Shown here: in pieces, positions 1,376 to 57,965 of the stretch | Layout of the letters: each line of letters starts with the position of its first letter | Position numbering within the stretch: position 1 is the first letter of the stretch | Origin: Escherichia phage vB_EcoS_ESCO30 | Length of the DNA stretch: 64,000 bases | Reading direction: 5' to 3' (one strand) | Sequence record: NC_106513.1 | The notes under the pieces: model-generated | Databases searched by the model: none | The model's input: only the letters and a program-made list of their open reading frames with translations | What the model was told of the DNA's origin: nothing | Position numbers and translations under genes: made by a program

Positions 1376-2266
1376 TTATACCAAATCTTTAAGCGATTCA
1401 GCAACTAAAATTTCAATACGTTTTGCTAACATATCAATTTCATCTTTGTTTAAATCACCCGGATCTTTACCTTCAGGCAGAAGAAAGTTAGCAACTACAG
1501 GTATTAAACGCGTTTTTGTACGAATTAACTTGGCCAACGCTTGTGCAGCCTTATTACCAGAAGCATCATTATCTAGTAAGATAACAACAACTTTTACACC
1601 AGCAATAATATAAGGGCTGAACTTATCCGCAATGTTATCCGAAGTAAACTGATGTGTACCAAAGCAGCAAGAAGCGTAGTCTATACCACTATCTTCTAGA
1701 TTCAGCATATCAAAGATACCCTCAACTAGAATAAGAACTGGAGTATTATATCGTACAGGAAAAATTGGTGGTGAAACTTGTTTTGGTTTTACTAAGTATT
1801 TAGGAGGGGCAGAACTGTTTATAGAACGACCCAAAAATAGGATATTGCGTCCAACAGCATCTGTGATTGGGAATACAATTCTGCCTTCCCAGTCTGCTTG
1901 GTGTTGGAAAGCAAAATATTTCTTCAAGGTCTTAGAACTTATACCTCGGAAATCACCTTCGAAAAGGTAAGCAGATTCAGGAATTGCAAGATTCGTTGAT
2001 CCATTCCTAATCTCTGAAATCTTTTTACGTACTTGCGATAGCCTTGGGGACTGTCGGTACTGAGTCTCATTAAAATAATGGTAAATGCTCGGTATACCTT
2101 TACCGAAGCCACAACTCAAGCAGTGCATAATACCTGTTTCAGGGTCAATACGCAAACTTGGGTGTTTATCGTCATGATCTGGATTTAAGCAACAGATTAA
2201 AATATCTCCACCAGTATCTTTATACTCAATTCCCTTAAGATCAAGTAATTCTGTTATTCTACTCAT
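1376..2266 (-). CDS. DNA primase (zinc-binding domain + TOPRIM)
   Basis: CxxH...CxxC zinc motif near N-terminus; TOPRIM Glu (LVEGIFD) and DxD (LLDNDASG). Confidence 0.75.
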   Translation of the reverse strand: MSRITELLDLKGIEYKDTGGDILICCLNPDHDDKHPSLRIDPETGIMHCLSCGFGKGIPSIYHYFNETQYRQSPRLSQVRKKISEIRNGSTNLAIPESAYLFEGDFRGISSKTLKKYFAFQHQADWEGRIVFPITDAVGRNILFLGRSINSSAPPKYLVKPKQVSPPIFPVRYNTPVLILVEGIFDMLNLEDSGIDYASCCFGTHQFTSDNIADKFSPYIIAGVKVVVILLDNDASGNKAAQALAKLIRTKTRLIPVVANFLLPEGKDPGDLNKDEIDMLAKRIEILVAESLKDLV

Positions 2267-2793
2267 GAATTTAGCTCCTCCAGTGAAGGATACTTAGTTG
2301 GATCAAAGATCTCTTGAACAGCATTTTCTCCATGTAATTGTAGACGTAGTTCATTGGCTTTAGTGACTGCAAGCTTTAGATCTGCGTAATTAAAGAGCCC
2401 ACCGTGAACTTTTTCTCCCGTAGAATTTACTACTCTTACATGCCATTTGTGATCCCGCTTAAACCAGAAAACTCCCAAGTATCCAGATTTACTTCTAGCT
2501 GTTTTATTTCTACTATTTTCTTGCCGGGTGGATGGCCTAATATTAATCCATCTATTATCCCAAGTAATTCGATTAATATGGTCTACTTCCTCTGGCATAT
2601 ATCCTTCCATATATAGGAAGGCTAGTTGGTGTGCAAAGTATAATTTTCTATCTACCTTTATCCGTATGTATCCACTATCTAGAGTACCCGCAATACTACC
2701 AGCTTTCTGATTGCCTCTAGATACTTTTCTAGTAAACTCCCCAGTCTCTGGGGAGTAGTCAAACAGTTCTTTTAGTCGTTCCTGTGTTATCAT
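2263..2793 (-). CDS. HNH homing endonuclease (HNH_3 + AP2-like)
   Basis: HQLAFLYMEGY...DHINRI...NRW motif; paralog of ORFs at 10169, 26421, 41862, 53980, 57429. Confidence 0.75.
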   Translation of the reverse strand: MITQERLKELFDYSPETGEFTRKVSRGNQKAGSIAGTLDSGYIRIKVDRKLYFAHQLAFLYMEGYMPEEVDHINRITWDNRWINIRPSTRQENSRNKTARSKSGYLGVFWFKRDHKWHVRVVNSTGEKVHGGLFNYADLKLAVTKANELRLQLHGENAVQEIFDPTKYPSLEELNS

Positions 2794-4262
2794 ATATCGC
2801 TGGCCTGTTCACCTGTTGAATTTTCAGTTTTGTCTTTCTTAGCACGTTTAGGTTGAGCCGGCTTATCCTTCTCAATAGGGATAACGAACTCAGCTTCCAT
2901 TTGAGATATATCTTCCATTGCTAGGTTGGTAGTGTTATCCATTCGCAGAGTTTCCCAGTTCATCTTAGGCATAAACTTCACGCTATCAGAAGAACGAGTT
3001 TTAACGAAGTCAAACATAATAGCACCTTGGCCATTATCAGCTTTTGCAGCATTAAGATTAGCAGCCATGTCTGCAGAATCAAGAATCCCCTTTGACATAC
3101 GTGTTCTACCATCTTGATCGATCTGGTAAGGAGCTACGCCAGCCACGTTATGTTTCTGGCAGATAGATTTGAAAGACGAGCTAACAACCATCTGTTCTTT
3201 CCAGTCATACATATCAATGGTTTTAGAATCTGGAAGTCGGGTTTGGTTAATATAGTCCAGTAAAGCTACTGTAACTTTATCACCATATCTAGCAACTAAT
3301 TTATTTAGTTCTACGTCAACTGTTGTAATGGACAGCTCAGGATCATAAACAATAATCATAGGAGTATGTAGTTCATATCCCTCTATTAGCTTACTCTCCA
3401 TATCGTAGAAATCACTCATCTTAGCCATTGTGTACTGTTTAACGAAGTTATCAAAAAGCTCTTCACCTCCATTAAACATTCTAGCTCTAGTTCTGGCCAA
3501 TCTCAACAGAGCTGCACCTTCTAGAGTATTATTACGCATTGCTAATGCTGATACACCAGCTAACATGGCTAGATTACGTCTAAATACTTCATGTTCTTTC
3601 ATCTCAATTGAGAAGTATGGAGCAATATCTCCATTCAAATATTGCTGAACCTGTATGTTTGAACAGATAATGGATTTACCAGTACCACGCCAACCACCAA
3701 GCAGTAACGTTTCTGTGCGAGCTAAACCGATTTGAGCGTCGAACTCATTACAAATACCAAGAGCGATTAAGTTCAGTTTGGTATCTTCTTCTCTCTGGAA
3801 AATACGCATGTTATCTGCGTTGAATACTTTTCCAGTATTCGTTACTTTCTCTTCTAATTTTAAGTGAAGGGAGGCAACTCGGTTGAGAATTTCTCCCTGA
3901 TCCAGCATTGTTAAATCTTGAAGCACGTCTGTTTCTAGAAGCTTCAGGAATAAATCCTGTGTATATTCGGCTTCTAGGACTTCAAGTGCCTGTTCCATGC
4001 TCACTTCTGGAATTTGAGTGTTAGCTAAGACGACTAGAGCTTGAGAAAGGCGGGCGTTCCTATTAGCTTCAAGCATAAGTGCGTCAATGGACGGCATTGT
4101 GTTATATTTTTTATAATAATTCTGGACGGCTTGGTAAATTGAGGAGAAAGCGTCATTAAAATGATCTTTATGCAGTTTTGAGAATGTTTCCAATGCTATT
4201 TGCTTCTGTTCGGAAGCTAGAAGCATCTTCAACACTACAGCTTGCACGTTAAACAAGGTCAT
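2790..4262 (-). CDS. replicative DNA helicase (DnaB-like)
   Basis: Walker A GGWRGTGKS; ATG at 4260-4262 with AAGGAG SD; ORF track extends to 4313 but that start sits inside a GC hairpin. Confidence 0.7.
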   Translation of the reverse strand: MTLFNVQAVVLKMLLASEQKQIALETFSKLHKDHFNDAFSSIYQAVQNYYKKYNTMPSIDALMLEANRNARLSQALVVLANTQIPEVSMEQALEVLEAEYTQDLFLKLLETDVLQDLTMLDQGEILNRVASLHLKLEEKVTNTGKVFNADNMRIFQREEDTKLNLIALGICNEFDAQIGLARTETLLLGGWRGTGKSIICSNIQVQQYLNGDIAPYFSIEMKEHEVFRRNLAMLAGVSALAMRNNTLEGAALLRLARTRARMFNGGEELFDNFVKQYTMAKMSDFYDMESKLIEGYELHTPMIIVYDPELSITTVDVELNKLVARYGDKVTVALLDYINQTRLPDSKTIDMYDWKEQMVVSSSFKSICQKHNVAGVAPYQIDQDGRTRMSKGILDSADMAANLNAAKADNGQGAIMFDFVKTRSSDSVKFMPKMNWETLRMDNTTNLAMEDISQMEAEFVIPIEKDKPAQPKRAKKDKTENSTGEQASDI

Positions 4263-4291
4263 TCTCCTTTGCACGCTTTCGTGCCTTCTAA

Positions 4292-4326
4292 ATGCAAAAA
4301 GGGGAAGGAGCATAGCCCCCTCCCCT
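4292..4326 (-). terminator. rho-independent terminator/attenuator between DNA-binding gene and helicase gene
   Basis: GGGGAAGG...CCTCCCC stem followed on minus strand by TTTTTGCATTT. Confidence 0.5.
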
Positions 4327-4344
4327 TAGGTTTAATTTACCAGA

Positions 4345-5112
4345 TTATTCAGCAGCCGCAGCTTTTGCATCCAGTTTAGCACGCTTAGCGGCACCATCAT
4401 AGTCCTTAGCAACCAGACCACGACGAGACAGCATAGATTTAACACCGCGCTCAGATTTACCAGTTTTCTCAGCGATCTCAGCAACAGTCATGTTAACCAG
4501 ATCCAGGCCTTCTAACAGATCTTCACGAGTTTTAGCACTTGAGGTTTCCTGTACCGGCATAGCAGCGATACGACCTTCACGAAGCAGACTCAGAGCTTTA
4601 CCGCGGATCTGCTTGATATTACGACCGAAGTGAGCAGCGATAGCTTCAATAGTAGCACCAGCAACAACCTGATTAACAAAATCAGTTTCTTCATCCGGAG
4701 TGAAGGAACGAACAGCAGCAGCTTTTTCGGTTGGCTTAACAGAAGCGGTCATTTCCAGACTCAGGATCTTACCCTGTACCTGTTTAGCACCGAACTGACC
4801 ACCAGCTACAGCAGCAGCGATTTCAGCATAGGTATACTGACCAGCATGAGCATTCAGGAAATCAACCAGTTCAGCTTCCTGCTCAGGAGTCCACGGGGAT
4901 TTCTGTACTTCGTTAGCTTTTTGTACTTCGAAACCTTCTTTACGCAGCTTAGAGCCAACAGAGCGAGCGGTAACGTCTTTGCCAGTTTCAGCAGCCAGTT
5001 CAGCGGCGATAGCAGCTACTTGTTCTTGAGAGATTACATCAACACCCAGAGCAGTGGCTTTTGCTTTCAGAGACTCGGTTACACCTTCTACGTTCCAGTT
5101 CAGTTTAGACAT
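4345..5112 (-). CDS. Ala-rich DNA-binding protein with three tandem HTH-like repeats
   Basis: Three repeats of AEIAAxxG...K/RxxxG...LS; locally GC-enriched. Confidence 0.5.
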   Translation of the reverse strand: MSKLNWNVEGVTESLKAKATALGVDVISQEQVAAIAAELAAETGKDVTARSVGSKLRKEGFEVQKANEVQKSPWTPEQEAELVDFLNAHAGQYTYAEIAAAVAGGQFGAKQVQGKILSLEMTASVKPTEKAAAVRSFTPDEETDFVNQVVAGATIEAIAAHFGRNIKQIRGKALSLLREGRIAAMPVQETSSAKTREDLLEGLDLVNMTVAEIAEKTGKSERGVKSMLSRRGLVAKDYDGAAKRAKLDAKAAAAE

Positions 5113-7121: not shown

Positions 7122-7433
7122 TTATTCTTTTTCCGCCAGGCGTCTAGCTTCTTTTTCTACTTCTAATAAAACCTCACTATTAGACAATATTTTAGTAAAT
7201 GCCTTAAATAAATGAGATGTTGTTTCTAGAGTGTATGGCATACTGAATCCACTTTTTGTTGGAAACCATTCGCCTTCTATATCTTGGAGCCAGTACCTAA
7301 TTCCTAAGTATAGATTCCCCCTAAACTCAGATACAGTTAGCCTAACCTGTTGGCCATCTTCTCTTTCCCAGATAACTATGGACTGATCATCTACATGCCC
7401 AACATAATCCTGATTTACATTATCTCCCGACAT
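7122..7433 (-). CDS. hypothetical protein
   Basis: 103-aa ORF in operon context; no recognisable motif. Confidence 0.45.
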   Translation of the reverse strand: MSGDNVNQDYVGHVDDQSIVIWEREDGQQVRLTVSEFRGNLYLGIRYWLQDIEGEWFPTKSGFSMPYTLETTSHLFKAFTKILSNSEVLLEVEKEARRLAEKE

Positions 7434-8080
7434 TTTATTGCTCCCTGACTTAGGAGATATTCCTCTGCCTCCTCTGGTTGAATATTAAAAAACTCAGTAG
7501 AACCATCAAATATTGATTCTGTAAATATCTGTGTAGTACTAAAAAATCTATGAGCTTTATTTTCTAGATTATACGCTGACTCATCATAAGAGTATACTCC
7601 ATGTATACTCAAGTCCTCCAGATTAGAGTCTTTTTTGATCTCTAAAAGTCTTCTATCTGGACTTTTAGATGTTCCTATTTTTGTTCCTAACCGTGGACTA
7701 TAGAATATATACAAATAGCTTGTAGTTACACAAATAGGACAAGACCTTCCTGCATTTTTAACTTTATCCACGCTACTAGTCCACCTATGCCCCTCTGCAC
7801 ACTCGAATACTGCTTGACTATGTGCATTGATATAGGGAGGTATAAGTTTTATGCCTCTATTGGCTAATTGTTGATTTATTTGCTCTATAGTAAGTTTAGC
7901 TTTACCGCTACAATGTGGGCAACCACTGCCTTTTCTTATATTATTTAGGTATGCCTTCCACTGGTGGCCTTTTGAGCATCTAAATATGGCGGGTGTTCTT
8001 ATGTTAATCCACTCACTTACTATACTAAAACCTCGCGGCTCTAATTCTTTATTTATTTGCTTTACTGTTAACTTTTTCAC
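7415..8080 (-). CDS. T5orf172/GIY-YIG-like putative endonuclease with two zinc-ribbon repeats
   Basis: Two C..GH.W...GxGCPxC repeats, then YLYIFYSP..GTKIGTS..P..RL motif. Confidence 0.6.
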   Translation of the reverse strand: MKKLTVKQINKELEPRGFSIVSEWINIRTPAIFRCSKGHQWKAYLNNIRKGSGCPHCSGKAKLTIEQINQQLANRGIKLIPPYINAHSQAVFECAEGHRWTSSVDKVKNAGRSCPICVTTSYLYIFYSPRLGTKIGTSKSPDRRLLEIKKDSNLEDLSIHGVYSYDESAYNLENKAHRFFSTTQIFTESIFDGSTEFFNIQPEEAEEYLLSQGAIKCREIM

Positions 8081-8127: not shown

Positions 8128-8418
8128 TTATTTTTTGCCTACTGGCGTAGCTCTATCAAGTTCACTAGACAATGAAGTGATACGTTTCACCTTATTTACA
8201 GGAATAAATCGGAAGCTGTCATTAGTGCGACTAAACACTAGAATTTCGTCATCTTTTGGTTGACGGATACGCTCCTGAGCAAAACGTTTACTTAGGTACT
8301 TATCAGAAAAATCCATAGTACCCTGAAGGTACGTAGTACCTTTTTGGCGTAGTTTCTCATAATGAAGGTAGAACTCATTATGGGCTTCACATGCGGAGAT
8401 AATTTCTTGTTTGTTCAT
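8128..8418 (-). CDS. hypothetical protein
   Basis: 96-aa ORF; no motif recognised. Confidence 0.45.
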   Translation of the reverse strand: MNKQEIISACEAHNEFYLHYEKLRQKGTTYLQGTMDFSDKYLSKRFAQERIRQPKDDEILVFSRTNDSFRFIPVNKVKRITSLSSELDRATPVGKK

Positions 8419-9210: not shown

Positions 9211-9883
9211 GTTTCAAGGCGGCCTTAACAGCTTCGTTAATCAACGTAATGACTTCTTCCCGAGTCCACTTATACCCCAGAGACTTTACATCAACCCCTA
9301 ACTTTTCCAGGTGTTTAACAGAAGCCAGTTCATAATTCATATAATGAACGTTCTGTTGTTTGCCTTCTGATAGAAGCCATACACGGTAACAACCAACAGG
9401 GTTATCCATTGCTTTTTTGATTTCACCGATACACTGGTATCCAGGAACCCAAACAAGCTCACCTACCTCAAATTCTTCTGCTACAGCATCGTCAGGAATA
9501 ATTGGTGGATTCAATGGATCTACAATATCGTTCAAACGAAGTAGAGCACCATATCGTTCCAGAACAGATTTAACCATTGCTACAGAGCGATAATTACGAT
9601 CGGCAATCTCTTCAAAAGAATCACCAGATAAATACTGCTCAATAACGTTGGCTAACTCAATGCCTTCAATGAGTGTGCCACGTTTCTTTTTCTTCATCTC
9701 GGCAACTTGAATTTGGCGATCTTGCCACTCTTCAATCATCCTTTCCATAGTTGGATTGGAGGATACTCCGAGCATTTCACATGCTGCTTTCTTAGTACCA
9801 CCGTTCTCCAGATGCTCTATAACTTTTTTAAAGACTTCATCCGGGATTTCATGGATATGTTTCTTTCTGCGAGAACCAGCCAT
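9179..9883 (-). CDS. putative HTH DNA-binding protein
   Basis: N-terminal HTH-like segment GGTKKAACEMLGVSSNPT; own promoter. Confidence 0.5.
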   Translation of the reverse strand: MAGSRRKKHIHEIPDEVFKKVIEHLENGGTKKAACEMLGVSSNPTMERMIEEWQDRQIQVAEMKKKKRGTLIEGIELANVIEQYLSGDSFEEIADRNYRSVAMVKSVLERYGALLRLNDIVDPLNPPIIPDDAVAEEFEVGELVWVPGYQCIGEIKKAMDNPVGCYRVWLLSEGKQQNVHYMNYELASVKHLEKLGVDVKSLGYKWTREEVITLINEAVKAALKLDKEKGKRRE

Positions 9884-9914
9884 ATTTAAACTCCTCTCTC
9901 AAATTTATGAATCT

Positions 9915-9943
9915 ATTATACAGAAAAATTTTCCTGAAAGCAA
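9915..9943 (-). promoter_or_regulatory. sigma70-type promoter (minus strand)
   Basis: minus-strand -35 TTGCTT (9938-9943), 17 bp spacer, -10 TATAAT (9915-9920), GAGAGGAG SD before ATG at 9883. Confidence 0.65.
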
Positions 9944-9951
9944 ATAAATTT

Positions 9952-10185
9952 TTACGATTCCTTGAGCAAAGAAGAAAGTTCAGCATATACTTTATCTAAT
10001 TCAAACCCTATGCGAAGAGATACGTTAGTCCTCCGTTGTTTAAGTAACCACTCGGATATGTTAGGGATGCCAGCTAGTCTGTGTGGTACCACCCTACATA
10101 GCTTTTCCGAAGTATCGTAAGCAGGAACTTTACGCTCTTTTACTGGAAACTTCCTTGTTTCCCATTTTTTATTCTTCACTGTCAT
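9952..10185 (-). CDS. hypothetical protein (start uncertain)
   Basis: ATG at 10185 with GGAGAG SD; track ORF extends to 10293 but overlaps HNH gene. Confidence 0.35.
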   Translation of the reverse strand: MTVKNKKWETRKFPVKERKVPAYDTSEKLCRVVPHRLAGIPNISEWLLKQRRTNVSLRIGFELDKVYAELSSLLKES

Positions 10186-10699
10186 ATCTCTCCGAGGGAT
10201 TAAATTCACCAAACAGCTCTTTAACTCCCCTAAGGTATAGCTGATGGGCTTCTTCCGGGGTATCTCGTCTACCAAAAATATGCTGCTTTCCATCGCAGTA
10301 AGCGTAGGCCATATACCTATTACCTCGTTTTACAACTCCAGTGAATCCGGTAGAATTAGTAGAACACTTCTTATTCTTTCCATTTTCGGAATAGGTAGCC
10401 TTACGTAAATTATCCCACAAGTTATTTAAACTATCACCGTCTTTATGGTCGATAGTTTTATCTCCAGGATCTTCGCCTGTCTTTATAAACCAGATTATTC
10501 TATGGGCTAAGTAAGCTGTCCGCTCCCCATTTATCGTAAACTCTAGTTGTCTCCCAGTTTTCATTTTGGAGCCCGCTACCTTTCCCTTCCTTGGGCCAGA
10601 TAACCAAATTAAGTCCCCAGTACTTTCGTCATACCTAAGCTTTTCTAGGATAAATGCCATAGGAGGCATTGGTTTATGCGTCTTCATTAGTTGCTCCAA
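10169..10699 (-). CDS. HNH homing endonuclease
   Basis: AYLAHRIIWF...IDHKDGD...NNL...NL HNH-like motif; diverged paralog of other HNH ORFs. Confidence 0.65.
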   Translation of the reverse strand: MEQLMKTHKPMPPMAFILEKLRYDESTGDLIWLSGPRKGKVAGSKMKTGRQLEFTINGERTAYLAHRIIWFIKTGEDPGDKTIDHKDGDSLNNLWDNLRKATYSENGKNKKCSTNSTGFTGVVKRGNRYMAYAYCDGKQHIFGRRDTPEEAHQLYLRGVKELFGEFNPSERYDSEE

Positions 10700-13538
10700 G
10701 TTCTGACAGTACTTCTTCTGCCATAGCCTTCTCTTCCTCTGTCATGAATTTGAAAGGAATCGGCATACACTCGATTTTACAATAGGTTCTGTACCAGTCT
10801 ACTATATTTTCAGTGTTCATATCCTTACCAATACCCATCATACCAAGATACATTCTAGCATATTTTGGGTTAGCACTCTGACCTGTTTTAAGGAAGAAGT
10901 CTTTCTTCTTACCTTTCAGAGCTTCTATGAAGGGTTTAATGGTTACATTTGAACACTTCTTAATGTCTTCCCAGAACATCTCGTGCATCTTATGGAAGAA
11001 TGCAGCTCGATCGTTCGGCTTATCTTTGATATATTGTTCAACATGCTCAACTGTTACATCTTTAATAGACTCAAGATGATAATAGCGAACAAGAAGTAGT
11101 TTAGCTTCATACGCATCCGCATGACGTGGAGCACAATAATCTGGAGTTGAATGCAGAATAGCTTTGATTCGCTCTTCTGTGTACTCTTTACCAGCACCTT
11201 CGATAGTTCCCCAGCTTTCACTGAAAATATCAATAGTTGCACCTTGATCAAGTAAGTAATAACGTAAAGTACTAGTATAGTTCCTAGATTCCAGCTCCCT
11301 GCGACGTGCGTATAATTGCTGTGCTAATTCCAGCCAGCCTTCATCAATATTATATTGTTCAGAACCTGCGGAGAATCCACTCGTAGATTTATCAATAAAA
11401 TAATAGATGTTCTGGGCACCACGGTCGCGCCTGATTGCTTGGAAACGCATGTTCGGCGCTTGATTACTGGTTCTAGTAATAACAAATACGTTATCAAAAT
11501 AGTTGAAGTCAACGCCACTCGTTACGGATGGACTACATAATAAACAGTCAATCTGTTGGTCAATTAGCTCATTAGTTGTATAATCCAGAATACGTCGAAT
11601 ATCCACATCTGAGGTGGAGTTTGAATGGATTTCCTTAACTAACGCACCAGTATTACGACGTAGTGCCATACCCTTCTCATTCAGCTCATCAGGGCCACAA
11701 TCAGATACCAGAATAGATTTCTCACCCATCTCTAGAGAAGTCTGAAGTGCAACCCAAATACTGGATTCATCAGGGAACTCATAAGCATGAGCTTTTGACA
11801 GCATCTTACGGTGATGATTATAGAATGCAACTGGTTTATCGAACTCAATCAAAGAACCATATGCTTCAATTGTTTCCGCACTAATATCACCATCGGATAG
11901 TATAATGATTTTTGCAGTTGCAAGAATATCCCGAAGAACCTGAATACACTCGCGACGTTGCTTAACAACCGGGGCGAATAATAGGTCATTCATTACTGCA
12001 TCACATTCATCAATAAAGATTGCATCAATTTGACCAATAAAACTTTTGAACTTATGTAAAGAGTGAATAGTTGTGGACATACGATCAATAGCACCACGCT
12101 TGAAATTAAGCATATCTACAGACTTATCATATTGTCCTGCACTAAATTTCTTGGCATTTGAAGATACCAGTGCTCTAGTATTTGTAATTGCTAAGAAATT
12201 ACCTTTAATAACCCCTGAATCTAACCAACGCACAACCGCCGTGGTTTTACCTGTGCCTAGACTTGCTTTTACAAAAGTCATATGACCTTCTGGTGGCACA
12301 GTGTTTAATTTCAAGAAATTATCTGTTTCTAGAGAGTTAGTTTCTAGCTTTTTAAGTGGAATACCTTTTAAAACATCAGGTATATCACGTTTAGAATTAT
12401 TAACAAATGCTTTCAGAGCCTGTTTTCGACCGTTATTAAAGTAATCTTGAATATTACGACTATTATCTTTAGTTGCAATATACTCAGATAAAGCTGGGCG
12501 GATCTCCTTCTCTAGCCAACCAAAATCTACACCATCCTCTAACGCTCGGTGATAGAGTTTAGGAATAATACGTAGATACACTCCATCTTCAGCTTCTTCT
12601 AGTTCGCTGATAGTTTCCTCTACTTTATCAGAGGCAGCTTTTTTACCTTTAATTTGATCGAGTAAAGAGTAGAATTCCTCTTTAAACTCTCCTCTAGTTG
12701 TTTCATAGTCAACTAGATTATTAGGTAAATTTACTTTTGAGCCTTTAACAAATACCAGACGTGAAGCACCATCCGCTTTAAACGGATCAACTATACCATC
12801 AGTAAATAAAGGATCTGCAAAATAGTGGAGCTGTACTGAAGAGTAATAAGCTAAGTCGGCAATATCAAAACCATACTTTTGTCTACTACTTTCGTTGATA
12901 GATGTAAATAAGAACTTGATCTGACCCTGTGTAACTTTAACATTAGATTCTAGTATTAAGTGCATTCGGATACCTGGTTTTAGTCCAGCCGAAGACGATG
13001 CATGAGCAATAAACCCTGCATCAAGAGGAAACATATCCTCACTAATACTATTCAACATCCTAATAATATGACGCGCCATGCCAACAAGATCAAACTTGTT
13101 ACAACCTCCTGTATCTACAATACCATCCACATCCATTGCGATTATATGACTTGGATTAGATACATTAAAGTTGCCCTTCTTACGTCGCACATTATTTTTA
13201 GGTGCAAGACATCGACCTCGTACCACAACGATATGAGGGTCAGACGTTAAACGTCTCATAAGAGGAAGCATTTCTACTAGGGTTTGAGGATCAACTTCAT
13301 CAATTACATCAAACTTGAAGGGCATTGAAGCTGGTTTACCTTCAGGATGCTTTGAGGAAAATCTTTTAGCAAAAAGATAATCTTCTGCTTTAACTTCTCG
13401 CCAATTGCCTGTGGCTAAATCGCGATGAAATCCTGCATGACCTTGTAGGATTGAAAACACAACAATACTCCTGTGTTGGAAATGAAATAAATTTTCTTTA
13501 GGACTATTCAGAAAGAATAGAACAACTGTTACTGTCAA
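10674..13538 (-). CDS. putative primase-helicase / replication initiation NTPase (start uncertain)
   Basis: Walker A SLGTGKTT and Walker B IFIDECD; N-terminal DxD-containing region; track ORF starts at TTG 13538, alternative ATG at 13325. Confidence 0.6.
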   Translation of the reverse strand: MTVTVVLFFLNSPKENLFHFQHRSIVVFSILQGHAGFHRDLATGNWREVKAEDYLFAKRFSSKHPEGKPASMPFKFDVIDEVDPQTLVEMLPLMRRLTSDPHIVVVRGRCLAPKNNVRRKKGNFNVSNPSHIIAMDVDGIVDTGGCNKFDLVGMARHIIRMLNSISEDMFPLDAGFIAHASSSAGLKPGIRMHLILESNVKVTQGQIKFLFTSINESSRQKYGFDIADLAYYSSVQLHYFADPLFTDGIVDPFKADGASRLVFVKGSKVNLPNNLVDYETTRGEFKEEFYSLLDQIKGKKAASDKVEETISELEEAEDGVYLRIIPKLYHRALEDGVDFGWLEKEIRPALSEYIATKDNSRNIQDYFNNGRKQALKAFVNNSKRDIPDVLKGIPLKKLETNSLETDNFLKLNTVPPEGHMTFVKASLGTGKTTAVVRWLDSGVIKGNFLAITNTRALVSSNAKKFSAGQYDKSVDMLNFKRGAIDRMSTTIHSLHKFKSFIGQIDAIFIDECDAVMNDLLFAPVVKQRRECIQVLRDILATAKIIILSDGDISAETIEAYGSLIEFDKPVAFYNHHRKMLSKAHAYEFPDESSIWVALQTSLEMGEKSILVSDCGPDELNEKGMALRRNTGALVKEIHSNSTSDVDIRRILDYTTNELIDQQIDCLLCSPSVTSGVDFNYFDNVFVITRTSNQAPNMRFQAIRRDRGAQNIYYFIDKSTSGFSAGSEQYNIDEGWLELAQQLYARRRELESRNYTSTLRYYLLDQGATIDIFSESWGTIEGAGKEYTEERIKAILHSTPDYCAPRHADAYEAKLLLVRYYHLESIKDVTVEHVEQYIKDKPNDRAAFFHKMHEMFWEDIKKCSNVTIKPFIEALKGKKKDFFLKTGQSANPKYARMYLGMMGIGKDMNTENIVDWYRTYCKIECMPIPFKFMTEEEKAMAEEVLSELGATNEDA

Positions 13539-19104: not shown

Positions 19105-19954
19105 TGATTATTTCCTCGATAAACTTTATAGCTACTTTTGGTTCAATATTGAAGAATTCCGTAGCGCCGTCAAAATCTTTGTACTGGCAATTCTGCTCTT
19201 TAAAGTAGTTATGGGCTAATTTTTCTATTCGAACTGCACTACTATATTCTCCAATTTCAAATACTTTAATTATTTCCAAATCAGTAAGGTGGCTACTAGA
19301 TCTAATTTGTAGAAGCCTACGCTCTGGGTTGTTAGATCTACCTATTTTAACCCCATGTGAGGGGCTATGCATAATATATATCCTAGTACTTTCTAAATCT
19401 CTATAATTACAGTAAGGACAACCGTTCCCTCTTAATACAGATCCTGGAGTAGCTTCCCACCTATGCCCTGCACCACAAAGAAAGGCGGTCTTAGTATTCG
19501 CGTTACTATACTCACCCACTATTCTGATATTTCTGGCAGCAAGACGATCATTTATAGTATTAACACTAAGTTTTTGTTTATTAGTAGCACAAGATGGGCA
19601 GCCACTACCTCTATTAATTATACTATTAAGTGTAGTAGCCCACTCATGACCACAAACACACCTAAATTTAGTATTTATATCGGCACTATTTTTATAGCCG
19701 TTCAACAATGTAATACCTCTGTCCTGTAATACAGTATTAATTCTATCAATATCTAGTTTACGGCTACTAATAGAGCAAGTAGGACAATTGGTCTTTCCAT
19801 TCCTAATAGCGTCAAATTTAGCTGTCCATTGGTGACCGTATTCACACTGATACGTATGCCTATACCTAGAATTTTGATATGGCTTATCCACCATAGTAAA
19901 ACCACGCTCGGCTAGGCATTTATCTACTTCTTCTTGAGTTAATTTTTTCGGCAT
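19091..19954 (-). CDS. T5orf172/GIY-YIG-like putative endonuclease with three zinc-ribbon repeats
   Basis: Three C..GH.W...G.GCPxC repeats, then IYIMHSP..GVKIGRS..P..RL motif; ATG at 19952-19954 with GGAGAAG SD; track start is GTG at 19996. Confidence 0.6.
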   Translation of the reverse strand: MPKKLTQEEVDKCLAERGFTMVDKPYQNSRYRHTYQCEYGHQWTAKFDAIRNGKTNCPTCSISSRKLDIDRINTVLQDRGITLLNGYKNSADINTKFRCVCGHEWATTLNSIINRGSGCPSCATNKQKLSVNTINDRLAARNIRIVGEYSNANTKTAFLCGAGHRWEATPGSVLRGNGCPYCNYRDLESTRIYIMHSPSHGVKIGRSNNPERRLLQIRSSSHLTDLEIIKVFEIGEYSSAVRIEKLAHNYFKEQNCQYKDFDGATEFFNIEPKVAIKFIEEIINDRE

Positions 19955-20007
19955 TCCACTTCTCCACAGAATTTTTACGGCATTCCACTTCTCCACAGAA
20001 TTTTTAC
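19950..20007. repeat. perfect 2 x 29 bp tandem direct repeat (GGCATTCCACTTCTCCACAGAATTTTTAC)
   Basis: Identical copies at 19950-19978 and 19979-20007; each carries SD + ATG of the downstream minus-strand gene. Confidence 0.9.
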
Positions 20008-38601: not shown

Positions 38602-38689
38602 GGGCGTTTATTCCGTAAGTGGTAGCGGAGGGGATTGTAAATCCCTGGTCATTGCGACTCGAGTGGTTCGACTCCATTAACGCCCACCA
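38602..38689 (+). tRNA. tRNA-Tyr (anticodon GTA), class II
   Basis: Acceptor GGGCGTT/AACGCCC perfect, anticodon stem GGGGA/TCCCT with loop TTGTAAA, variable arm hairpin, T-arm AGTGG-TTCGACT-CCATT, CCA encoded. Confidence 0.75.
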
Positions 38690-39198: not shown

Positions 39199-39265
39199 AC
39201 AAACTGGTAAAGTCACTACCCTTTCAAGGTAGGATTTGCGGGTTCGATCCCCGCACAGGACGCCA
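39189..39265 (+). tRNA. tRNA-Glu (anticodon TTC)
   Basis: Acceptor GTCCTGT/ACAGGAC perfect, anticodon stem CTACC/GGTAG with loop CTTTCAA, T-arm GCGGG-TTCGATC-CCCGC, CCA encoded. Confidence 0.75.
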
Positions 39266-41759: not shown

Positions 41760-41844
41760 GGGGCTATGCTGGAACTGGTAGACAATACGGCCTTAGATTC
41801 CGTAGCTTAAATGCGTGGGAGTTCGAGTCTCCCTAGCCCCACCA
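41760..41844 (+). tRNA. tRNA-Leu (anticodon TAG), class II
   Basis: Acceptor GGGGCTA/TAGCCCC perfect, anticodon stem TACGG/CCGTA around ...CTTAGAT..., long variable arm, T-arm GGGAG-TTCGAGT-CTCCC, CCA encoded. Confidence 0.65.
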
Positions 41845-41861: not shown

Positions 41862-42446
41862 ATGCAGTTTGTACCAGTAAAAGATGCACCAGGGTATTTA
41901 GTAAATGAGGCGGGGGATGTGTTCTCTACATTTACTAATAAAGTTTTATCAAGATATATAGTTGATGGATACCCTGCTGTAAAATTACAGATAAATGGTA
42001 AACAAACCTCTGTACTTATACACCGAATTATTTCTCATGTATTTGGGGACTTATATAATCTATTTGACCCTGAATTAGAGGTAGATCATAAGGATAGAGA
42101 TAGACTGAATCTATCTAAAGATAATCTTCAAGTCCTATCAAAAATAGAACATCAGAGGAAAACTAATAAAGATAATGGGTGGTCTGACAGTAGAGTACCT
42201 TGCCCCCTATGTGGGAGTCTAATGCTTCAGAGATCTGTAACATGTACAAATTGTAAGCCAAAACCTACAGGAAGGTTGATAAAACCAGAATTGTCTTTAG
42301 ACGACATAACTGAAAAGGTTTTATTAATGGGGTGGGTTAAGGCAGCTAAAGAGTTAGAAGTATCAGAGTCCACTTTGCGCAGGAGGTATACTAAACTAAC
42401 TGGATTAAGCCCAAAAGTATTAACAGAACAACGGAAAAGCAAATAG
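41862..42446 (+). CDS. HNH endonuclease
   Basis: HRIISHVFG...EVDHKDRDRLNLSKDNL HNH motif; 3' end overlaps tRNA-Ser 5' end. Confidence 0.7.
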   Translation: MQFVPVKDAPGYLVNEAGDVFSTFTNKVLSRYIVDGYPAVKLQINGKQTSVLIHRIISHVFGDLYNLFDPELEVDHKDRDRLNLSKDNLQVLSKIEHQRKTNKDNGWSDSRVPCPLCGSLMLQRSVTCTNCKPKPTGRLIKPELSLDDITEKVLLMGWVKAAKELEVSESTLRRRYTKLTGLSPKVLTEQRKSK

Positions 42447-42526
42447 ACTGGCGACTAAACCCGATTGGAAATCGGTTGAGTAATAGCAATATTGCCTTAT
42501 GGGTTCAACTCCCATCTTTTCCGCCA
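42433..42526 (+). tRNA. tRNA-Ser (anticodon GGA), class II
   Basis: Acceptor GGAAAAG/CTTTTCC perfect, anticodon stem CCGA/TCGG with loop TTGGAAA, long variable arm, T-arm ATGGG-TTCAACT-CCCAT, CCA encoded. Confidence 0.65.
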
Positions 42527-47130: not shown

Positions 47131-47422
47131 GTTTATTATTGCACTGATGATCTCCGCAGTTAGTTTCGGTTCTCTGGCGTCTACCAAAGTTTCTATGAAA
47201 AATGGTAATGTTAAAGTCCAACAGAACGGCATTATTACAGAGTATGGTAAAGTTCGTGATGTTAAGGAACGTAATGGTAAAGTAGAAATATATACTAATA
47301 AAAACTTCTCTACTCCGGCTGTTACTGTTAGCAAACGTGGTGAGATAACTACTCAACGTACTAATAGCTCTAGTTCTTTTACTTGTCGTTATGATTGCGA
47401 CTTCGAAGGTGAAGATGAATAA
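47123..47422 (+). CDS. hypothetical secreted protein
   Basis: ATG 47123; signal peptide MNKFIIALMISAVSFGSLAS; ends ...CDFEGEDE (track start 47057). Confidence 0.5.
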   Translation: MNKFIIALMISAVSFGSLASTKVSMKNGNVKVQQNGIITEYGKVRDVKERNGKVEIYTNKNFSTPAVTVSKRGEITTQRTNSSSSFTCRYDCDFEGEDE

Positions 47423-47810
47423 TTTAGATCCTAGAATTAAATTTGCAATTACAGAAATCCAAGATCAAATTGATGAGGACTTCACTGTTTGGTCAAGGTC
47501 CGGTAATGGGGAATACTGCCAGCTTTATAGCATGAAAATGGGCATTTCAATCGAGCTTAACATTAACTCTGAAGGTAGAGTAGAAGCCCAACCACTATTC
47601 AGTGTTCCAGGCTTCTCTGGATTTGTTGCAGGTATGAAATTGTGTCTACCAAATAACCATCTTCATCGAGTTATTTGTCAGCTAGAGACTATTAAACATT
47701 TCTTGCCAGAAGGTAACATTAATGACTACTACCATGAAGTTGTAGCAGCTCATATGATGAAAGAACGCAAACGTCGGAGAGAAGAACGTGAAAAAGCTAA
47801 ACATCAATAG
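47415..47810 (+). CDS. hypothetical protein
   Basis: ATG 47415 in a GAAGATGAATAA junction like the previous gene (track start 47391). Confidence 0.45.
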   Translation: MNNLDPRIKFAITEIQDQIDEDFTVWSRSGNGEYCQLYSMKMGISIELNINSEGRVEAQPLFSVPGFSGFVAGMKLCLPNNHLHRVICQLETIKHFLPEGNINDYYHEVVAAHMMKERKRRREEREKAKHQ

Positions 47811-53554: not shown

Positions 53555-53983
53555 ATGTCTGATCGTTTCTACACTCAAATGGCGGAACATTTTCGTATAC
53601 CACATTACGAGCTAAACATTGCACTCCGCGATCATGATTCTCCTGAGTACAAAAAGCTCGAAAAGAAAGCGGAAAAATCTATTGATACAAAGGTAGGTGC
53701 TCCTATGTCTAAAGGCAAAAAGTTAACTCGTCTTGATCTTAATAAAATTTTAACTGAACTTTTGGGTACTGATATTGAAGGTGCTAAATTACCACTTCTA
53801 GTACTAGAGACTATGATTAAAAAGGTCAAAAATAAAGAGTATAAGAAGGTAGAAGTCCCAGAAGGCAGATTAAAGGCTCCTTATCAGGAAGCATTAACCG
53901 AGTGTTTGGGTGTAAATCTTGATCTGAGCACCGCAACTGTTAAGTGCATGAAAAATTTCTTAGAAGCTATTAATAAACTATGA
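53555..53983 (+). CDS. hypothetical protein
   Basis: 142-aa Lys-rich ORF. Confidence 0.5.
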   Translation: MSDRFYTQMAEHFRIPHYELNIALRDHDSPEYKKLEKKAEKSIDTKVGAPMSKGKKLTRLDLNKILTELLGTDIEGAKLPLLVLETMIKKVKNKEYKKVEVPEGRLKAPYQEALTECLGVNLDLSTATVKCMKNFLEAINKL

Positions 53984-54510
53984 TTACACAGGATACTCTT
54001 AAACAGATGTTCAATTACGACCCTGAAACGGGAATCTTTACATGGAAAGTAAGTAGAGGACCGAAAAAGAAGGGCGATATAGCAGGAACACTCACTAAAG
54101 ATGGATACATTAGAATAACCGTTAATAAACGCCCTTATTATGCGCAGCAATTAGCATGTCTATACATGACTGGAGAATGGCCAGAGCATGAGATGGACCA
54201 TGAAAATCGCATAACCTATGATAATAGGTGGTGTAATATTCGTAATGCTACTAAACAGGAAAATCTAAGAAATAGGAAAGCATGGAGTAAATCCGGCTAT
54301 TTAGGAGTTTCATGGAATCGAGGTAAGTGGCAAGTCTACGTCGTGAACTCAAATGGAGAAAGTATATCAGGCGGGCGTTTTGAACATAAAGATTTAGAAT
54401 TGGCAGTTAAATCAGCCAATACTTTAAGACAAAAACTACACGGAGAGCGTGCTGTTTTAGAGGTATTTAATGGAGTTATTCCAAGTATTGAGGATTTAAA
54501 TAATGAGTAA
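53980..54510 (+). CDS. HNH homing endonuclease
   Basis: AQQLACLYMTGEW...DHENRI...NRW motif. Confidence 0.8.
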   Translation: MITQDTLKQMFNYDPETGIFTWKVSRGPKKKGDIAGTLTKDGYIRITVNKRPYYAQQLACLYMTGEWPEHEMDHENRITYDNRWCNIRNATKQENLRNRKAWSKSGYLGVSWNRGKWQVYVVNSNGESISGGRFEHKDLELAVKSANTLRQKLHGERAVLEVFNGVIPSIEDLNNE

Positions 54511-54796
54511 TAAATTAGTATATCTATTGAAAGGTTCTACTTGCAATCCTTGCAAAATGTTTGAGCCAGTATTTGATAAAGTAGTCAGTGACTATAATTT
54601 GGAAATCCATAAAGAGACTGATAATACAGAATTAATGCAGAAATTTGGTGTGCGCCAAGTTCCTGTAGTAGTTCTGGCGGATCGCTTACCTAATGGTCGA
54701 GTAGAAGCTAATCATATTTTGATTGGACGTCAGCTTCGTAAAGAAACTATGCACGAAGCTATTAAAAATTTCCTGGATGATAATCCAGAGGACTAA
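54503..54796 (+). CDS. thioredoxin/glutaredoxin-like protein (CxxC)
   Basis: CNPC redox motif near N-terminus; 97 aa. Confidence 0.55.
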   Translation: MSNKLVYLLKGSTCNPCKMFEPVFDKVVSDYNLEIHKETDNTELMQKFGVRQVPVVVLADRLPNGRVEANHILIGRQLRKETMHEAIKNFLDDNPED

Positions 54797-56614: not shown

Positions 56615-56643
56615 TTGCTAAAATGCTTAAGTTTCTGTATAAT
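56615..56643 (+). promoter_or_regulatory. strong early promoter
   Basis: -35 TTGCTA 56615-56620, 17 bp, -10 TATAAT 56638-56643. Confidence 0.7.
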
Positions 56644-56673
56644 TACTTTATAAATTGATGAGAAGGAATAAAA

Positions 56674-57105: not shown

Positions 57106-57121
57106 GGAATTAAAAAATTCA

Positions 57122-57150
57122 GTTGCTTTAAGCCTTAAAATTCTGTATAA
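57122..57150 (+). promoter_or_regulatory. strong early promoter
   Basis: -35 TTGCTT 57122-57127, 17 bp, -10 TATAAT 57145-57150. Confidence 0.7.
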
Positions 57151-57183
57151 TAAGTTCATAAATTAATGAGAGAGGAAATTCTA

Positions 57184-57432
57184 ATGGAAAACATGACTAA
57201 AAATGAAATGGCTAACGTTCTGGCAATTCTCCTCGACATGCAAGGATTTGAGGGGCAACTGATGAAAATGTCTATTCCGGCGATGAAGAAGATGTACGAT
57301 TCTCTTAACAAGAACGCTATGGCCTTTAACTTAGCGAAACAAGAGGCACGATTTGCTAAGGAGCATCAAGCAGTGGCAGAACGCCGAGCAGCTAGCTTTG
57401 AGCGCGAAGTCAAGCAATTAAAGAAAAAATGA
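57184..57432 (+). CDS. hypothetical protein
   Basis: ATG 57184 after GAGAGAGGAAA SD (track start 57166). Confidence 0.45.
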   Translation: MENMTKNEMANVLAILLDMQGFEGQLMKMSIPAMKKMYDSLNKNAMAFNLAKQEARFAKEHQAVAERRAASFEREVKQLKKK

Positions 57433-57965
57433 TAACACAAGAAAGATTAAAAGAATTATTTGAATACCGCCCGGAAACGGGCGAGTTTATAAGGAAAGTC
57501 AGTAGGGGGCGAGGTAAAGCAGGTAGTATTGCTGGCAGTCCTGATAAGGATGGTTATATATTTATTGGAATAAATAGAAAAAGATATGCAGCCCATAGAT
57601 TAGCCTTTTTGTACATGGAGGGGTATATTCCAAATCTAGTACACCACTTAAACAATATAAGAAAAGATAATAGATGGTGTAATTTAAAAGATTGTACGTC
57701 CCAAGAGAATAATCGTAGCAAAATCGCTCAATCTAATTCGGGGTACTTAGGAGTTACCTGGAAAAAAGATCGACAACAATGGAGAGTCCAGGTCAGAAGC
57801 GCCGAAAGTATTACAGTACACGGAGGCTACTTTAGGTATTTAGATTTAGAGTTAGCAGTTCAAAGAGCTAATGAACTACGTTTAGAACTACATGGGTCTA
57901 ACGCTGTTATAGAAACTTTTGATCATACAAAACCATTACCTACTTTAGAGGAATTAAATAAATGA
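57429..57965 (+). CDS. HNH homing endonuclease
   Basis: AHRLAFLYMEGY...NRW motif. Confidence 0.8.
   Translation: MITQERLKELFEYRPETGEFIRKVSRGRGKAGSIAGSPDKDGYIFIGINRKRYAAHRLAFLYMEGYIPNLVHHLNNIRKDNRWCNLKDCTSQENNRSKIAQSNSGYLGVTWKKDRQQWRVQVRSAESITVHGGYFRYLDLELAVQRANELRLELHGSNAVIETFDHTKPLPTLEELNK

Follow-up and report, generated by a model that had tools for sequence, protein, structure and literature searches.

We identified nine free-standing homing endonuclease genes (HEGs) in Escherichia phage vB_EcoS_ESCO30 (NC_106513.1; the 64,000-nt stretch analysed is here referred to as the window), and they are best explained, with a probability of about 85%, as selfish genes that settled between, and not inside, conserved phage genes. 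The window belongs to a T5-like phage (Tequintavirus type) with ~93–95% identity to database phages. All nine nuclease ORFs reported in an earlier note on this DNA were located at exactly the same coordinates and carry the Pfam domains of their families. Here we refer to them by W and their first position; they are listed below with the tRNA genes that adjoin two of them.

2263–2793, minus strand: W2263, free-standing HNH_3 HEG (Pfam HNH_3 E=3.5e-12; phrog_99)
7415–8080, minus strand: W7415, T5orf172-type HEG with two CapR/DUF4379 Zn-finger repeats (phrog_681)
10169–10699, minus strand: W10169, HNH_3 HEG, ortholog of T5 hegI (P-TflIX)
19091–19996, minus strand: W19091, T5orf172-type HEG with three to four Zn-finger repeats
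26421–26975, plus strand: W26421, HNH_3 HEG (Pfam HNH_3) between thyA (25492–26346) and rnh (26972–27448)
38602–38689, plus strand: tRNA-Tyr(GTA) (ARAGORN), 17 nt upstream of W38707
38707–39198, plus strand: W38707, Zn-finger-less T5orf172 nuclease gene, T5.069-like (phrog_5032; Pfam T5orf172 E=4.8e-9)
39189–39265, plus strand: tRNA-Glu(TTC) (ARAGORN), its first 10 nt being the last 10 nt of the W38707 ORF
41862–42446, plus strand: W41862, HNH HEG, ortholog of T5 hegC (Pfam HNH_3 marginal, 26.6 vs 24.8 bits)
42433–42526, plus strand: tRNA-Ser(GGA) (ARAGORN), its 5′ end overlapped over 14 nt by W41862
53980–54510, plus strand: W53980, HNH_3 HEG (Pfam HNH_3) precisely between a T5.038 homolog (53555–53983) and the thioredoxin gene (54503–54796)
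57429–57965, plus strand: W57429, HNH_3 HEG (Pfam HNH_3) between T5.032 and T5.030 homologs

The HNH_3 domain (PF13392) was detected in six of the nine ORFs, at 46.2, 47.5, 42.4, 26.6, 38.9 and 42.3 bits (gathering score 24.8), and the same six genes match PHROG HNH families with E=1e-22 to 1e-62. The other three (W7415, W19091 and W38707) contain the GIY-YIG-like T5orf172/MUG113 domain, with 25.3, 46.7 and 37.1 bits, respectively, for T5orf172 (PF10544, cut-off 20) and 40.2, 47.3 and 36.2 bits for MUG113 (PF13455, cut-off 22.3). A six-frame HMM search of the window with the profiles of both families revealed no copies or fragments beyond the nine. All are stand-alone intergenic ORFs with intact neighbours, and none lies within an intron or intein. 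The flanking genes, named by homology to annotated T5, are full length and show 74–99% protein identity to their T5 homologs, except for thyA (30%) and nrdD (57%), both of which have complete Pfam domains. The scatter of the nucleases among essential modules, described previously, was also borne out by T5 homology, as they neighbour the primase and helicase, thyA and rnh, the tRNA cluster and phosphatase genes.

The nine ORFs fall into four lineages. On the basis of their sequences, W2263, W26421, W53980 and W57429, with 49–63% mutual identity, are grouped as one HNH_3 lineage, of which W10169, with ~30% identity to these four, is a distant relative. The earlier description of six HNH paralogs therefore held as regards the HNH_3 domain but not as a single set, since W10169 is that distant and W41862 belongs to a separate subfamily. 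Likewise, the T5orf172 domain was found in all three genes described as zinc-ribbon/T5orf172 genes, whereas the Zn fingers were found in W7415 and W19091 but not in W38707.

The earlier note had named presence or absence across T5-like genomes as a test, and polymorphism was observed at all nine sites: the same gene occupied the same site in ~2–15% of the records with any match (from 10/505 to 60/389) within a collection of 50,697 phage records, where the counts vary with the megablast coverage thresholds applied, and duplicate and near-duplicate records are included. In most relatives the site is cleanly empty, while some have a different nuclease gene there. The empty sites are precise in the named relatives, with the flanks lying from −1 to 29 bp apart.

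W2263 lies between the primase (1376–2266) and the DnaB-like helicase D6 (2790–4313), overlapping each by 4 nt. It was found in 42/443 records, and in most relatives the primase and helicase genes adjoin. In T5 this is the hegJ site, at which W2263 stands as a different allele (66% amino acid and 70% nucleotide identity, with flanks at 96–100%). W10169 lies between the origin-binding protein T5.108 (10674–13538) and a T5.110 homolog, has 98% amino acid identity to T5 hegI and occupies its site in 22/467 records; HZ_ZJUN2 and fp01 are without it, with 29 bp between the flanks. Annotation of its relatives suggests that its true start is probably the ATG at 10687. The W26421 site is occupied in 10/421 records. 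T5 has no gene there, UTK0010, MM-2 and Cit2 have small non-HEG ORFs between thyA and rnh, and the copy in GEC_vB_N7, annotated as an HNH homing endonuclease, is 99% identical at the nucleotide level. W53980 is a clean 524-bp insertion relative to T5, its flanks being 4 bp apart in T5 and S130, and its site is occupied in 14/285 records. W57429 takes the place of 171 bp that hold T5.031; its site is occupied in 60/389 records, and the gene is absent from T5 and Kenya-K20. Together, W53980 and W57429 bracket two phosphatase genes.

In W7415, which is located between homologs of the regulator T5.115 (7122–7433) and of T5.114 (8128–8418), Pfam detected DUF4379, CapR, MUG113 and T5orf172. The gene is present in fp01 and HZ_ZJUN2 and absent from T5 and BB1 (flanks 16 bp apart), with the site occupied in 11/286 records. 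W19091 (DUF4379 in 3 stretches, CapR, T5orf172 and MUG113) lies upstream of nrdD, in the region where nrdD and phoH diverge, and overlaps the nrdD start by 14 nt. It is absent from T5, its site is occupied in 25/436 records, and its counterpart in HZ_ZJUN2 is annotated as "GIY-YIG nuclease family protein". Its true start is probably 19954, to judge from the annotation of relatives. In both proteins treble-clef Zn-finger modules (DUF4379/CapR) precede the nuclease domain on its N-terminal side, in 2 stretches in W7415 and 3 in W19091, and we predict that these repeats bind DNA and guide both T5orf172 nucleases. T5-like phages are rich in T5orf172 HEGs with CapR-like Zn-finger repeats, which cluster near ribonucleotide reductase and replication genes (PMC10448857). 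W7415 and W19091 have exactly the architecture described by Barth, Dunham and Seed 2023 (PMC10448857), with N-terminal Zn-finger repeats and a C-terminal T5orf172 domain, and they adjoin replication and ribonucleotide reductase genes as reported there.

W41862 lies between tRNA-Leu(TAG) and tRNA-Ser(GGA). Unlike the other five HNH genes, it belongs to a subfamily, shared with T5 hegA, hegC and hegD, that has a CxxC...CxxC Zn ribbon at the C-terminus and a putative helix-turn-helix. T5 hegC, which likewise overlaps tRNA-Ser2, is 99% identical to it in amino acids and 99.8% in nucleotides. The gene is absent from BF23 and chee24, and its site is occupied in 10/505 records. We infer that hegC would be TflIII, since hegE and hegJ are annotated as F-TflV and P-TflX in the T5 record. 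The title of Akulenko 2004 reportedly names three enzymes, F-TflI, II and IV, TflIII not being among these.

W38707 interrupts the 6-nt spacer that separates tRNA-Tyr from tRNA-Glu; compared with T5, SE8 and PH204, it is a clean insertion of 485 bp. The site is occupied in 37/471 records, and 92% of the relatives with the same tRNA pair are without the gene; rokbiter and BUCT632 have two other members of the family at this site, which thus holds three different genes. The stop codon of W38707, a TAG, is made of nucleotides 8–10 of tRNA-Glu, as seen in the junction sequence. The tRNA-Tyr is a variant allele that differs from that of T5 by compensated changes in its stems; it is identical at 88/88 positions in slur09 and rokbiter, shows 85–87% identity to T5, SE8 and PH204, and was also found beside an empty site in two IMG/VR genomes. 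The tRNA-Glu is 100% identical to the copy in PH204, where the site is empty.

Neither a Zn-finger profile match (Pfam) nor Cys pairs were found in the W38707 protein, which falls in the ~13% minority of T5orf172 HEGs without a Zn finger (PMC10448857) and has a three-helix N-terminal region instead. Its AF2 model (pLDDT 87.4) shows these helices followed by a core (E71-78, E81-90, H93-103, E110-117, H120-129) with a GIY-YIG-like beta-beta-alpha-beta-alpha order. The best PDB matches of the model were GIY-YIG nucleases (Slx1, At-HIGLE and UPF0213), at weak E-values of 0.06–2; for Slx1 the probability was 0.98–1.0, with an rmsd of 3.0 A over 73 columns. Across 13 homologs Y74, K86, G88, R96 and E124 are invariant, and H128 and E137 are nearly so. 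All 11 members of the T5.069-like subfamily that were examined, some from T4-like phages, lie within ~30 nt of a tRNA gene, and 5 of the 11 end on tRNA positions 8–10 (U8-A9-G10/A10), read as TAG or TAA. From its genomic positions, we regard this lineage as one that lives at tRNA gene junctions. Its constant adjacency to tRNA genes is modestly new, the lineage having been little noticed so far.

The inactive nuclease motifs that the earlier note had named as a refutation were not seen in the nine. W2263, W10169, W26421, W53980 and W41862 keep DH...N...N, and W57429 keeps the His, with HH where the others have DH. All three T5orf172 copies share the conserved motif Y...KIG...R...E/H...E(W/F), which does not vary among the 13 W38707 homologs. 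All nine ORFs are full length, ortholog comparisons gave 191 synonymous versus 112 non-synonymous codon differences, and no internal stops were found in the orthologous copies examined, the PH204 copy of W53980 being left unscored owing to an indel in its extraction. It is very unlikely that some or all of the copies are decaying relics at a late stage of the HEG life cycle, as the HH of W57429 and the score of W41862, barely above the Pfam threshold, might suggest, since the scored copies have no internal stop, synonymous changes prevail, the HH is kept in the PH204 and S130 orthologs, and the six-frame search gave no fragments.

Repeated homing-type insertion, as proposed earlier, is on sequence grounds well supported because of the 2–15% occupancy, the empty sites, the alternative nucleases, the intact copies and the excess of synonymous changes. 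We also counted in favour of homing that different family members were found at one site, namely at the hegJ site and at the tRNA-Tyr/Glu site. By analogy with characterised phage HEGs, two related T5-like phages would co-infect one cell, the nuclease would nick or cut the HEG-less allele near the empty site, and recombinational repair templated by the HEG-carrying genome would copy the HEG with a variable flanking tract into the recipient. Tracts of high identity, an ambiguous sign of co-conversion, do centre on the HEGs, but the comparators were partly chosen by that very region, and the peaks are mild against T5, which is unbiased. The variant tRNA-Tyr, thyA and nrdD alleles beside HEGs occur also without a HEG. 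The same mechanism may have been kept for another selective reason, mainly the benefit of the phage, which would use the nucleases as weapons to keep out markers from co-infecting relatives or against satellites and competitors. That all copies are under purifying selection would agree with this, as would their place beside essential genes, from which the phage's own alleles would be spread, and precedents exist in T4, whose Seg nucleases cause marker exclusion (PMC2330249), and in the ICP1 T5orf172 nuclease Odn, which acts against a satellite (PMC8263062, PMC10448857). However, the low occupancy of every copy indicates that no advantage was strong enough for fixation, and Pfam detected no satellite-related DNA-binding domain such as RepA_N; we consider selection for phage benefit rather unlikely, and favour selfish homing.

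The overlaps with tRNA genes noted previously for W41862 and W38707 are real (14 and 10 nt, ARAGORN). A role in tRNA processing, which had been suggested with them, found no support, while their other suggested role, the targeting of tRNA genes, is plausible with DNA as the substrate, given the SegB precedent and the adjacency in 11/11 subfamily members. That the two proteins act on RNA, in the processing, repair or cleavage of tRNAs or tRNA precursors, could be argued from the physical overlap with tRNA 5′ ends and from how strictly the W38707 subfamily keeps to the side of tRNA genes. It is nevertheless highly improbable, as Pfam revealed no RNA-nuclease domain in either, only DNA-nuclease domains (HNH, and the T5orf172/GIY-YIG fold), the same tRNAs are present and intact in the relatives without these genes, which make up ~92–98% of all relatives, the Zn ribbon and putative helix-turn-helix of W41862 are typical of DNA binding, and SegB, the best-studied analogue, cleaves the DNA of tRNA genes (PMC2330249). 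The neighbouring tRNA genes, as DNA, are the likely targets of both nucleases by this analogy. A better explanation of the overlap is that each gene takes its stop codon from the tRNA and that tRNA processing holds its expression down: both ORFs extend into the tRNA behind them before they meet a stop codon, and since this lies inside the tRNA, an RNase P cut at the tRNA 5′ end would remove it from the HEG transcript, so that little nuclease would be made. tRNA processing has already been proposed to limit the expression of segB and of the T5 F-Tfl genes (PMC2330249).

In function, T4 SegB is the best analogue of W38707 and W41862. Experiments showed that its target is the tRNA genes themselves, in which it recognises the sequence of the T-psi-C stem-loop, with the major site in the T2L tRNA-Asn, and it spreads neighbouring tRNA genes (PMC2330249). 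Like these two, it is a free-standing HEG that lies between tRNA genes and is missing from close relatives, and its ORF ends abut tRNA genes (PMC2330249). It is analogous to the W38707 family and not a member of it, as no sequence relationship was detectable (hhalign probability 0.2%); SegB has an N-terminal PF01541 GIY-YIG domain (residues 3–71), whereas W38707 has no PF01541 match and a C-terminal T5orf172 domain. For the window's HNH genes, no solved structure was detectable by sequence; their HNH_3 core is like that of I-HmuI-type HNH (His-Me finger) phage endonucleases and of T-even mobE, found between nrdA and nrdB. Enzymes of the I-HmuI type nick DNA. Genes of the mobE/I-HmuI type are free-standing or intron-borne and, like the HNH genes here, lie beside nucleotide-metabolism and replication genes (PMC3326045).

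A pattern of this kind is already documented for T5-like phages, in which HEGs are the main difference among genomes (PMC10644984) and number from 1 to 9 (PMC3326045). T5 itself, of the same phage group and genome architecture as the window, has hegA–hegJ. W41862 corresponds to hegC, W10169 to hegI, and W2263 stands at the hegJ site; hegE and hegJ show 46–66% identity to W2263, W26421, W53980 and W57429. Of the nine sites, six are without a HEG in T5, and the window in turn is empty at five sites where T5 has one (hegA, D, E, F and H).

Nine homing endonuclease genes (HEGs), each named here by W and the start of its ORF, are confirmed in the window, where an earlier note made from the sequence alone had placed them. 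All six genes read in that note as HNH endonucleases carried the Pfam domain HNH_3 above threshold, with concordant PHROGs assignments. The three described as zinc-ribbon/T5orf172 genes all carried T5orf172/MUG113 in Pfam; repeated DUF4379/CapR treble-clef zinc fingers were detected in W7415 and W19091, but W38707 had no zinc finger, and for this gene only the T5orf172 part of the description stands. Likewise, the six "paralogs" are all HNH genes but form a heterogeneous set with uneven identities.

HEGs of the window and occupancy of their sites, as occupied/matched records among 50,697 phage records. Each query was the HEG with 500 bp of flank per side; occupied, 80% or more of the query covered by the record; empty, about 60–68% covered in two pieces (both flanks). 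Duplicates in the collection and a threshold sensitive to flank conservation make these counts approximate.
W2263 (2263-2793), HNH_3 gene: 42/443
W7415 (start 7415), T5orf172/MUG113 gene: 11/286
W10169 (start 10169), HNH_3 gene: 22/467
W19091 (start 19091), T5orf172/MUG113 gene: 25/436
W26421 (start 26421), HNH_3 gene: 10/421
W38707 (38707-39198), T5orf172/MUG113 gene: 37/471
W41862 (41862-42446), HNH_3 gene: 10/505
W53980 (start 53980), HNH_3 gene: 14/285
W57429 (57429-57965), HNH_3 gene: 60/389

Within the HNH set, W2263, W26421, W53980 and W57429 showed 49–63% mutual identity and W10169 was about 30% identical to these four. W41862 had the HNH motif alone in common with the other copies and grouped with hegA, hegC and hegD of T5 (whose own annotated HEGs are hegA to hegJ), a type with a C-terminal CxxC...CxxC ribbon and a putative helix-turn-helix. 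HMMs built from the HEG copies recovered exactly these nine from six-frame stop-to-stop segments, with no extra or degenerate HEGs or fragments in the window, and no nuclease domain was identified by Pfam in the ten window-specific ORFs that have no T5 counterpart. Public phage genomes contain near-identical copies of each of the nine, and these often bear the annotation HNH homing endonuclease. In a sequence search of solved structures, W2263 had no match and W19091 only a marginal one to DUF4379.

The nuclease motifs were retained. The HNH copies keep DH...N...N, with HH in W57429, where LVHHLNN replaces EVDHINR at the position at which all paralogs have DH; this HH is also kept in the orthologs of phages PH204 and S130. 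The T5orf172 copies keep the pattern Y...KIG...R...H...E(W/F). No internal stops were found among the HEG orthologs examined, the PH204 copy of W53980 being unscored because of an indel in its extraction, and the summed codon differences between orthologs (191 synonymous versus 112 non-synonymous) indicate purifying selection on the HEGs.

Compared by megablast with the 50,697 phage records, two large parts of the window matched several hundred T5-like phages from Salmonella, Escherichia and relatives, belonging to the Demerecviridae and mostly to Tequintavirus. The top matches were 93–95% identical to the window, with no identical record among the 50,697. Gene order follows that of T5 at about 9.9–72.4 kb in reversed orientation, starting with a replication set (primase, helicase D6, ligase A/B and origin-binding protein), which is followed by nrdD, phoH, nrdAB, frd, thyA and rnh, and then by the tRNA cluster (22 tRNAs), lysis genes and phosphatase genes.

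Among these relatives, every HEG copy is a minority insertion, a result that is robust. Local flank-to-flank analysis of 20 fetched loci revealed empty sites that are clean, the flanks being separated by -1 to 29 bp, as well as alternative occupants, namely small non-HEG ORFs at the thyA/rnh site, T5.031 at the W57429 site and different nuclease genes at the tRNA-Tyr/tRNA-Glu site. Presence/absence polymorphism was thus found at all nine sites and, together with the intact and conserved genes, it leaves the repeated homing insertion proposed in the earlier note well supported.

The load of HEGs is as high as that of T5, in a different combination. W41862 is T5 hegC (99% amino acid and 99.8% nucleotide identity, the overlap with tRNA-Ser2 included) and W10169 is hegI (98% amino acid identity). 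W2263 occupies the hegJ site between the helicase D6 and primase genes (T5 hegJ, 24614-25147 of fetched locus L004), with 66% amino acid and 70% (63–82%) nucleotide identity to hegJ; we read such diverged genes between flanks that are 96–100% identical as one HEG allele replaced by a related one, with two alleles alternating at this primase/helicase site. T5 is empty at the six other HEG sites of the window, and the window is empty at the T5 sites of hegA, hegD, hegE, hegF and hegH. In the place of hegE, a stretch of 361 bp in the window versus 515 bp in T5, lies a 139-aa ORF without a Pfam match (47391-47810), which PH204 also has. The small genes flanking W7415, at 7122-7433 (T5.115 homolog) and 8128-8418 (T5.114 homolog), show 74% protein identity to T5, versus mostly 88–99% for the other HEG neighbours.

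The anatomy of these genes fits that of the free-standing HEGs characterised in T-even phages, from which we infer cleavage and repair: the nuclease would nick or cut the HEG-less allele during mixed infection, and recombinational repair would then copy the HEG and its flanking DNA into the cut genome. Signs of such co-conversion around the HEGs are no more than suggestive. In comparison with T5, the hegI region (9300-11700) was 94–98% identical, compared with 63–87% on its low side and 79–86% on its high side, and hegC was 100% identical with flanks at 98%. Identity tracts against the best HEG-positive relative for each site also peaked at the HEGs; we discounted these peaks since the relatives had been chosen by that very region, and with T5 as the unbiased comparator the signal was mild. 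The BF23 genome paper contained nothing that links HNH nickases to the natural genome nicks of T5.

Two HEGs lie beside genes whose alleles are strongly diverged from those of T5. The ThyA encoded next to W26421 (25492-26346) has 30% protein identity to T5 Thy, between neighbours that are 95% (frd) and 97% (rnh) identical, and both alleles encode true thymidylate synthases (PF00303). The allele of the window, 855 nt long, is of the Epseptimavirus type (86–87% nucleotide identity). A reading in which the HEG had brought in a foreign thyA was rejected, as the same allele occurs without the HEG in UTK0010, MM-2 and Cit2, and in some Tequintaviruses, so that the link between thyA and W26421 is not specific. 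The nrdD gene next to W19091 (17278-19104) resembles this case, with 57% protein and 67–69% nucleotide identity to T5 beside a phoH that is 99.6% identical. The 5′ end of this nrdD allele was unmatched in most of the 436 records at the megablast level, and in phC11 the nrdD flank was matched with the HEG absent. Both swaps fit HEGs marking recombination boundaries (PMC10448857), and are not specifically tied to W26421 or W19091.

The tRNA overlaps described in the earlier note are real, amounting to 14 nt between W41862 and tRNA-Ser(GGA) and 10 nt between W38707 and tRNA-Glu. In T5, SE8 and PH204 a 6-nt spacer (ATTTAA) lies between tRNA-Tyr and tRNA-Glu, and W38707 sits in it as a clean insertion of 485 bp; its ORF crosses the spacer and stops at a TAG formed by nucleotides 8-10 of tRNA-Glu. 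As tRNA-Glu of the window is 100% identical to that at the empty site of PH204, the insertion leaves the tRNA intact, and 92% of relatives are without the W38707 gene; this speaks against the processing of tRNAs, suggested in the earlier note for the tRNA-adjacent copies, in the case of W38707.

The predicted structure of W38707 (AlphaFold, pLDDT 87.4, pTM 0.81) is a confident model whose best matches among solved structures are the GIY-YIG nucleases Slx1, At-HIGLE and UPF0213 (Foldseek, high probability with weak E-values), and Y74, K86, G88, R96 and E124 are invariant in an alignment of 13 sequences of its homologs. Two other members of its protein family, rokbiter gp110 and a BUCT632 gene, are found at the same tRNA-Tyr/Glu site, and the related T5.069 (25007-25525 of fetched locus L003), 40% identical to W38707, lies at a tRNA-Cys/tRNA-Asn junction. 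We inspected the genomic context of ten database homologs (31–91% identical). All 11 distinct proteins, W38707, T5.069 and rokbiter gp110 included, have a tRNA gene no more than about 30 nt away, at nine different junctions (Tyr/Glu, Cys/Asn, Tyr/Asn, Glu/Lys, Asn/Asp, Asn/Ile, Asn/-, Gln/- and -/Asn), in T5-like phages, T4-like myoviruses (e.g. Enterobacter phage vB_EclM-UFV01) and other phages. tRNA-Asn adjoins seven of the 11. In five members the overlap with the downstream tRNA is exactly 10 nt long, which places the stop codon at tRNA positions 8-10, U8-A9-G10 as TAG or U8-A9-A10 as TAA.

We propose, with a probability of about 0.4, that W38707 represents a distinct, so far unremarked T5orf172 lineage without zinc fingers (T5.069-like, phrog_5032, "unknown function") that is an obligate resident of tRNA junctions across unrelated phages (T5-like siphoviruses, T4-like myoviruses and others). 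Recognition of tRNA gene DNA would let the members of this lineage home between tRNA genes; they would usually lack a stop of their own and end on the conserved U8-A9-G10 (TAG) of the downstream tRNA, and, as they move together with flanking DNA, tRNA genes would be shuffled from phage to phage. With the stop codon inside the tRNA, processing by RNase P would de-stop the mRNA. The strict junction habit and borrowed stop of the W38707/T5.069 subfamily are the only part of these results for which we found no earlier description.

An experimental precedent is SegB of T4, a GIY-YIG HEG within the tRNA cluster. Its recognition sequence is the T-psi-C stem-loop of tRNA genes, its major site lies in tRNA-Asn of T2L, and it drags neighbouring tRNA genes along; for segB, as for the F-Tfl genes of T5, processing of tRNAs from the primary transcript has been proposed to lower expression (PMC2330249). 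Direct homology of W38707 to SegB was rejected, as no sequence relationship was found; the domain order is moreover reversed, so that the likeness is functional rather than familial. The W38707 lineage would be a case of convergence from another branch of the GIY-YIG superfamily and, if it homes on tRNA genes, a second, independent vehicle of phage tRNA gene exchange beside SegB. The borrowed stop, if true, would show in a simple case how a selfish gene is controlled by tRNA processing.

tRNA-Tyr beside W38707 (38602-38689) is one of two existing alleles, distinguished by compensated changes in the acceptor and anticodon stems; it is identical over 88/88 nt in slur09 and rokbiter, and 85–87% identical to those of T5, SE8 and PH204. 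Its association with the HEG seemed perfect in three occupied and three empty genomes, as expected of an HEG-linked allele that is immune or resistant to cleavage. This was rejected when two IMG/VR genomes were found to combine the HEG-type allele with an empty site, leaving a one-directional association in which the W38707 HEG was never seen with the other allele. The IMG/VR pattern scans yielded only 10 loci, mostly from isolates that are also in GenBank, and hence offer little independent sampling.

That T5-like phages are peppered with HEGs is a documented, already known property. According to the BF23 genome paper, HEGs such as the F-Tfl HNH enzymes are the largest contribution to their genome differences (PMC10644984), and the AKFV33 paper, which also discusses an nrdA/nrdB hotspot, counted nine HEGs in T5, a single one in EPS7 and two each in SPC35 and AKFV33 (PMC3326045). 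T5orf172 HEGs with repeated CapR-like zinc fingers abound in these phages, concentrated around RNR and replication genes (Barth et al. 2023; PMC10448857). The early, replication and tRNA regions are strewn with HNH and T5orf172 HEGs, which are the source of most gene-content differences between relatives, the tRNA-junction-specific lineage being the one element of possibly wider importance. The practical value of the present results lies in annotation and comparative genomics, since several public relatives leave HEGs unannotated: the W38707 ortholog in slur09 (4483-4983 of fetched locus L008), hegC in PH204 (7314-7898 of L002) and the T5.069-family gene in BUCT632 (832-1385 of L018).

Elsewhere in the window, at 32787-32860, ARAGORN places a tRNA-Ser whose anticodon (ACT) is unusual; the region matches that of the T5 stable RNA "RNAX", and the element may be only tRNA-like and not a working tRNA. 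Beside hegC, tRNA-Leu(TAG) (41760-41844) and tRNA-Ser(GGA) (42433-42526) are strongly unlike their counterparts in BF23 and chee24, two hegC-less phages that have at the hegC site a 112-nt spacer with a T-arm-like sequence (GGGTTCGAATCCC).
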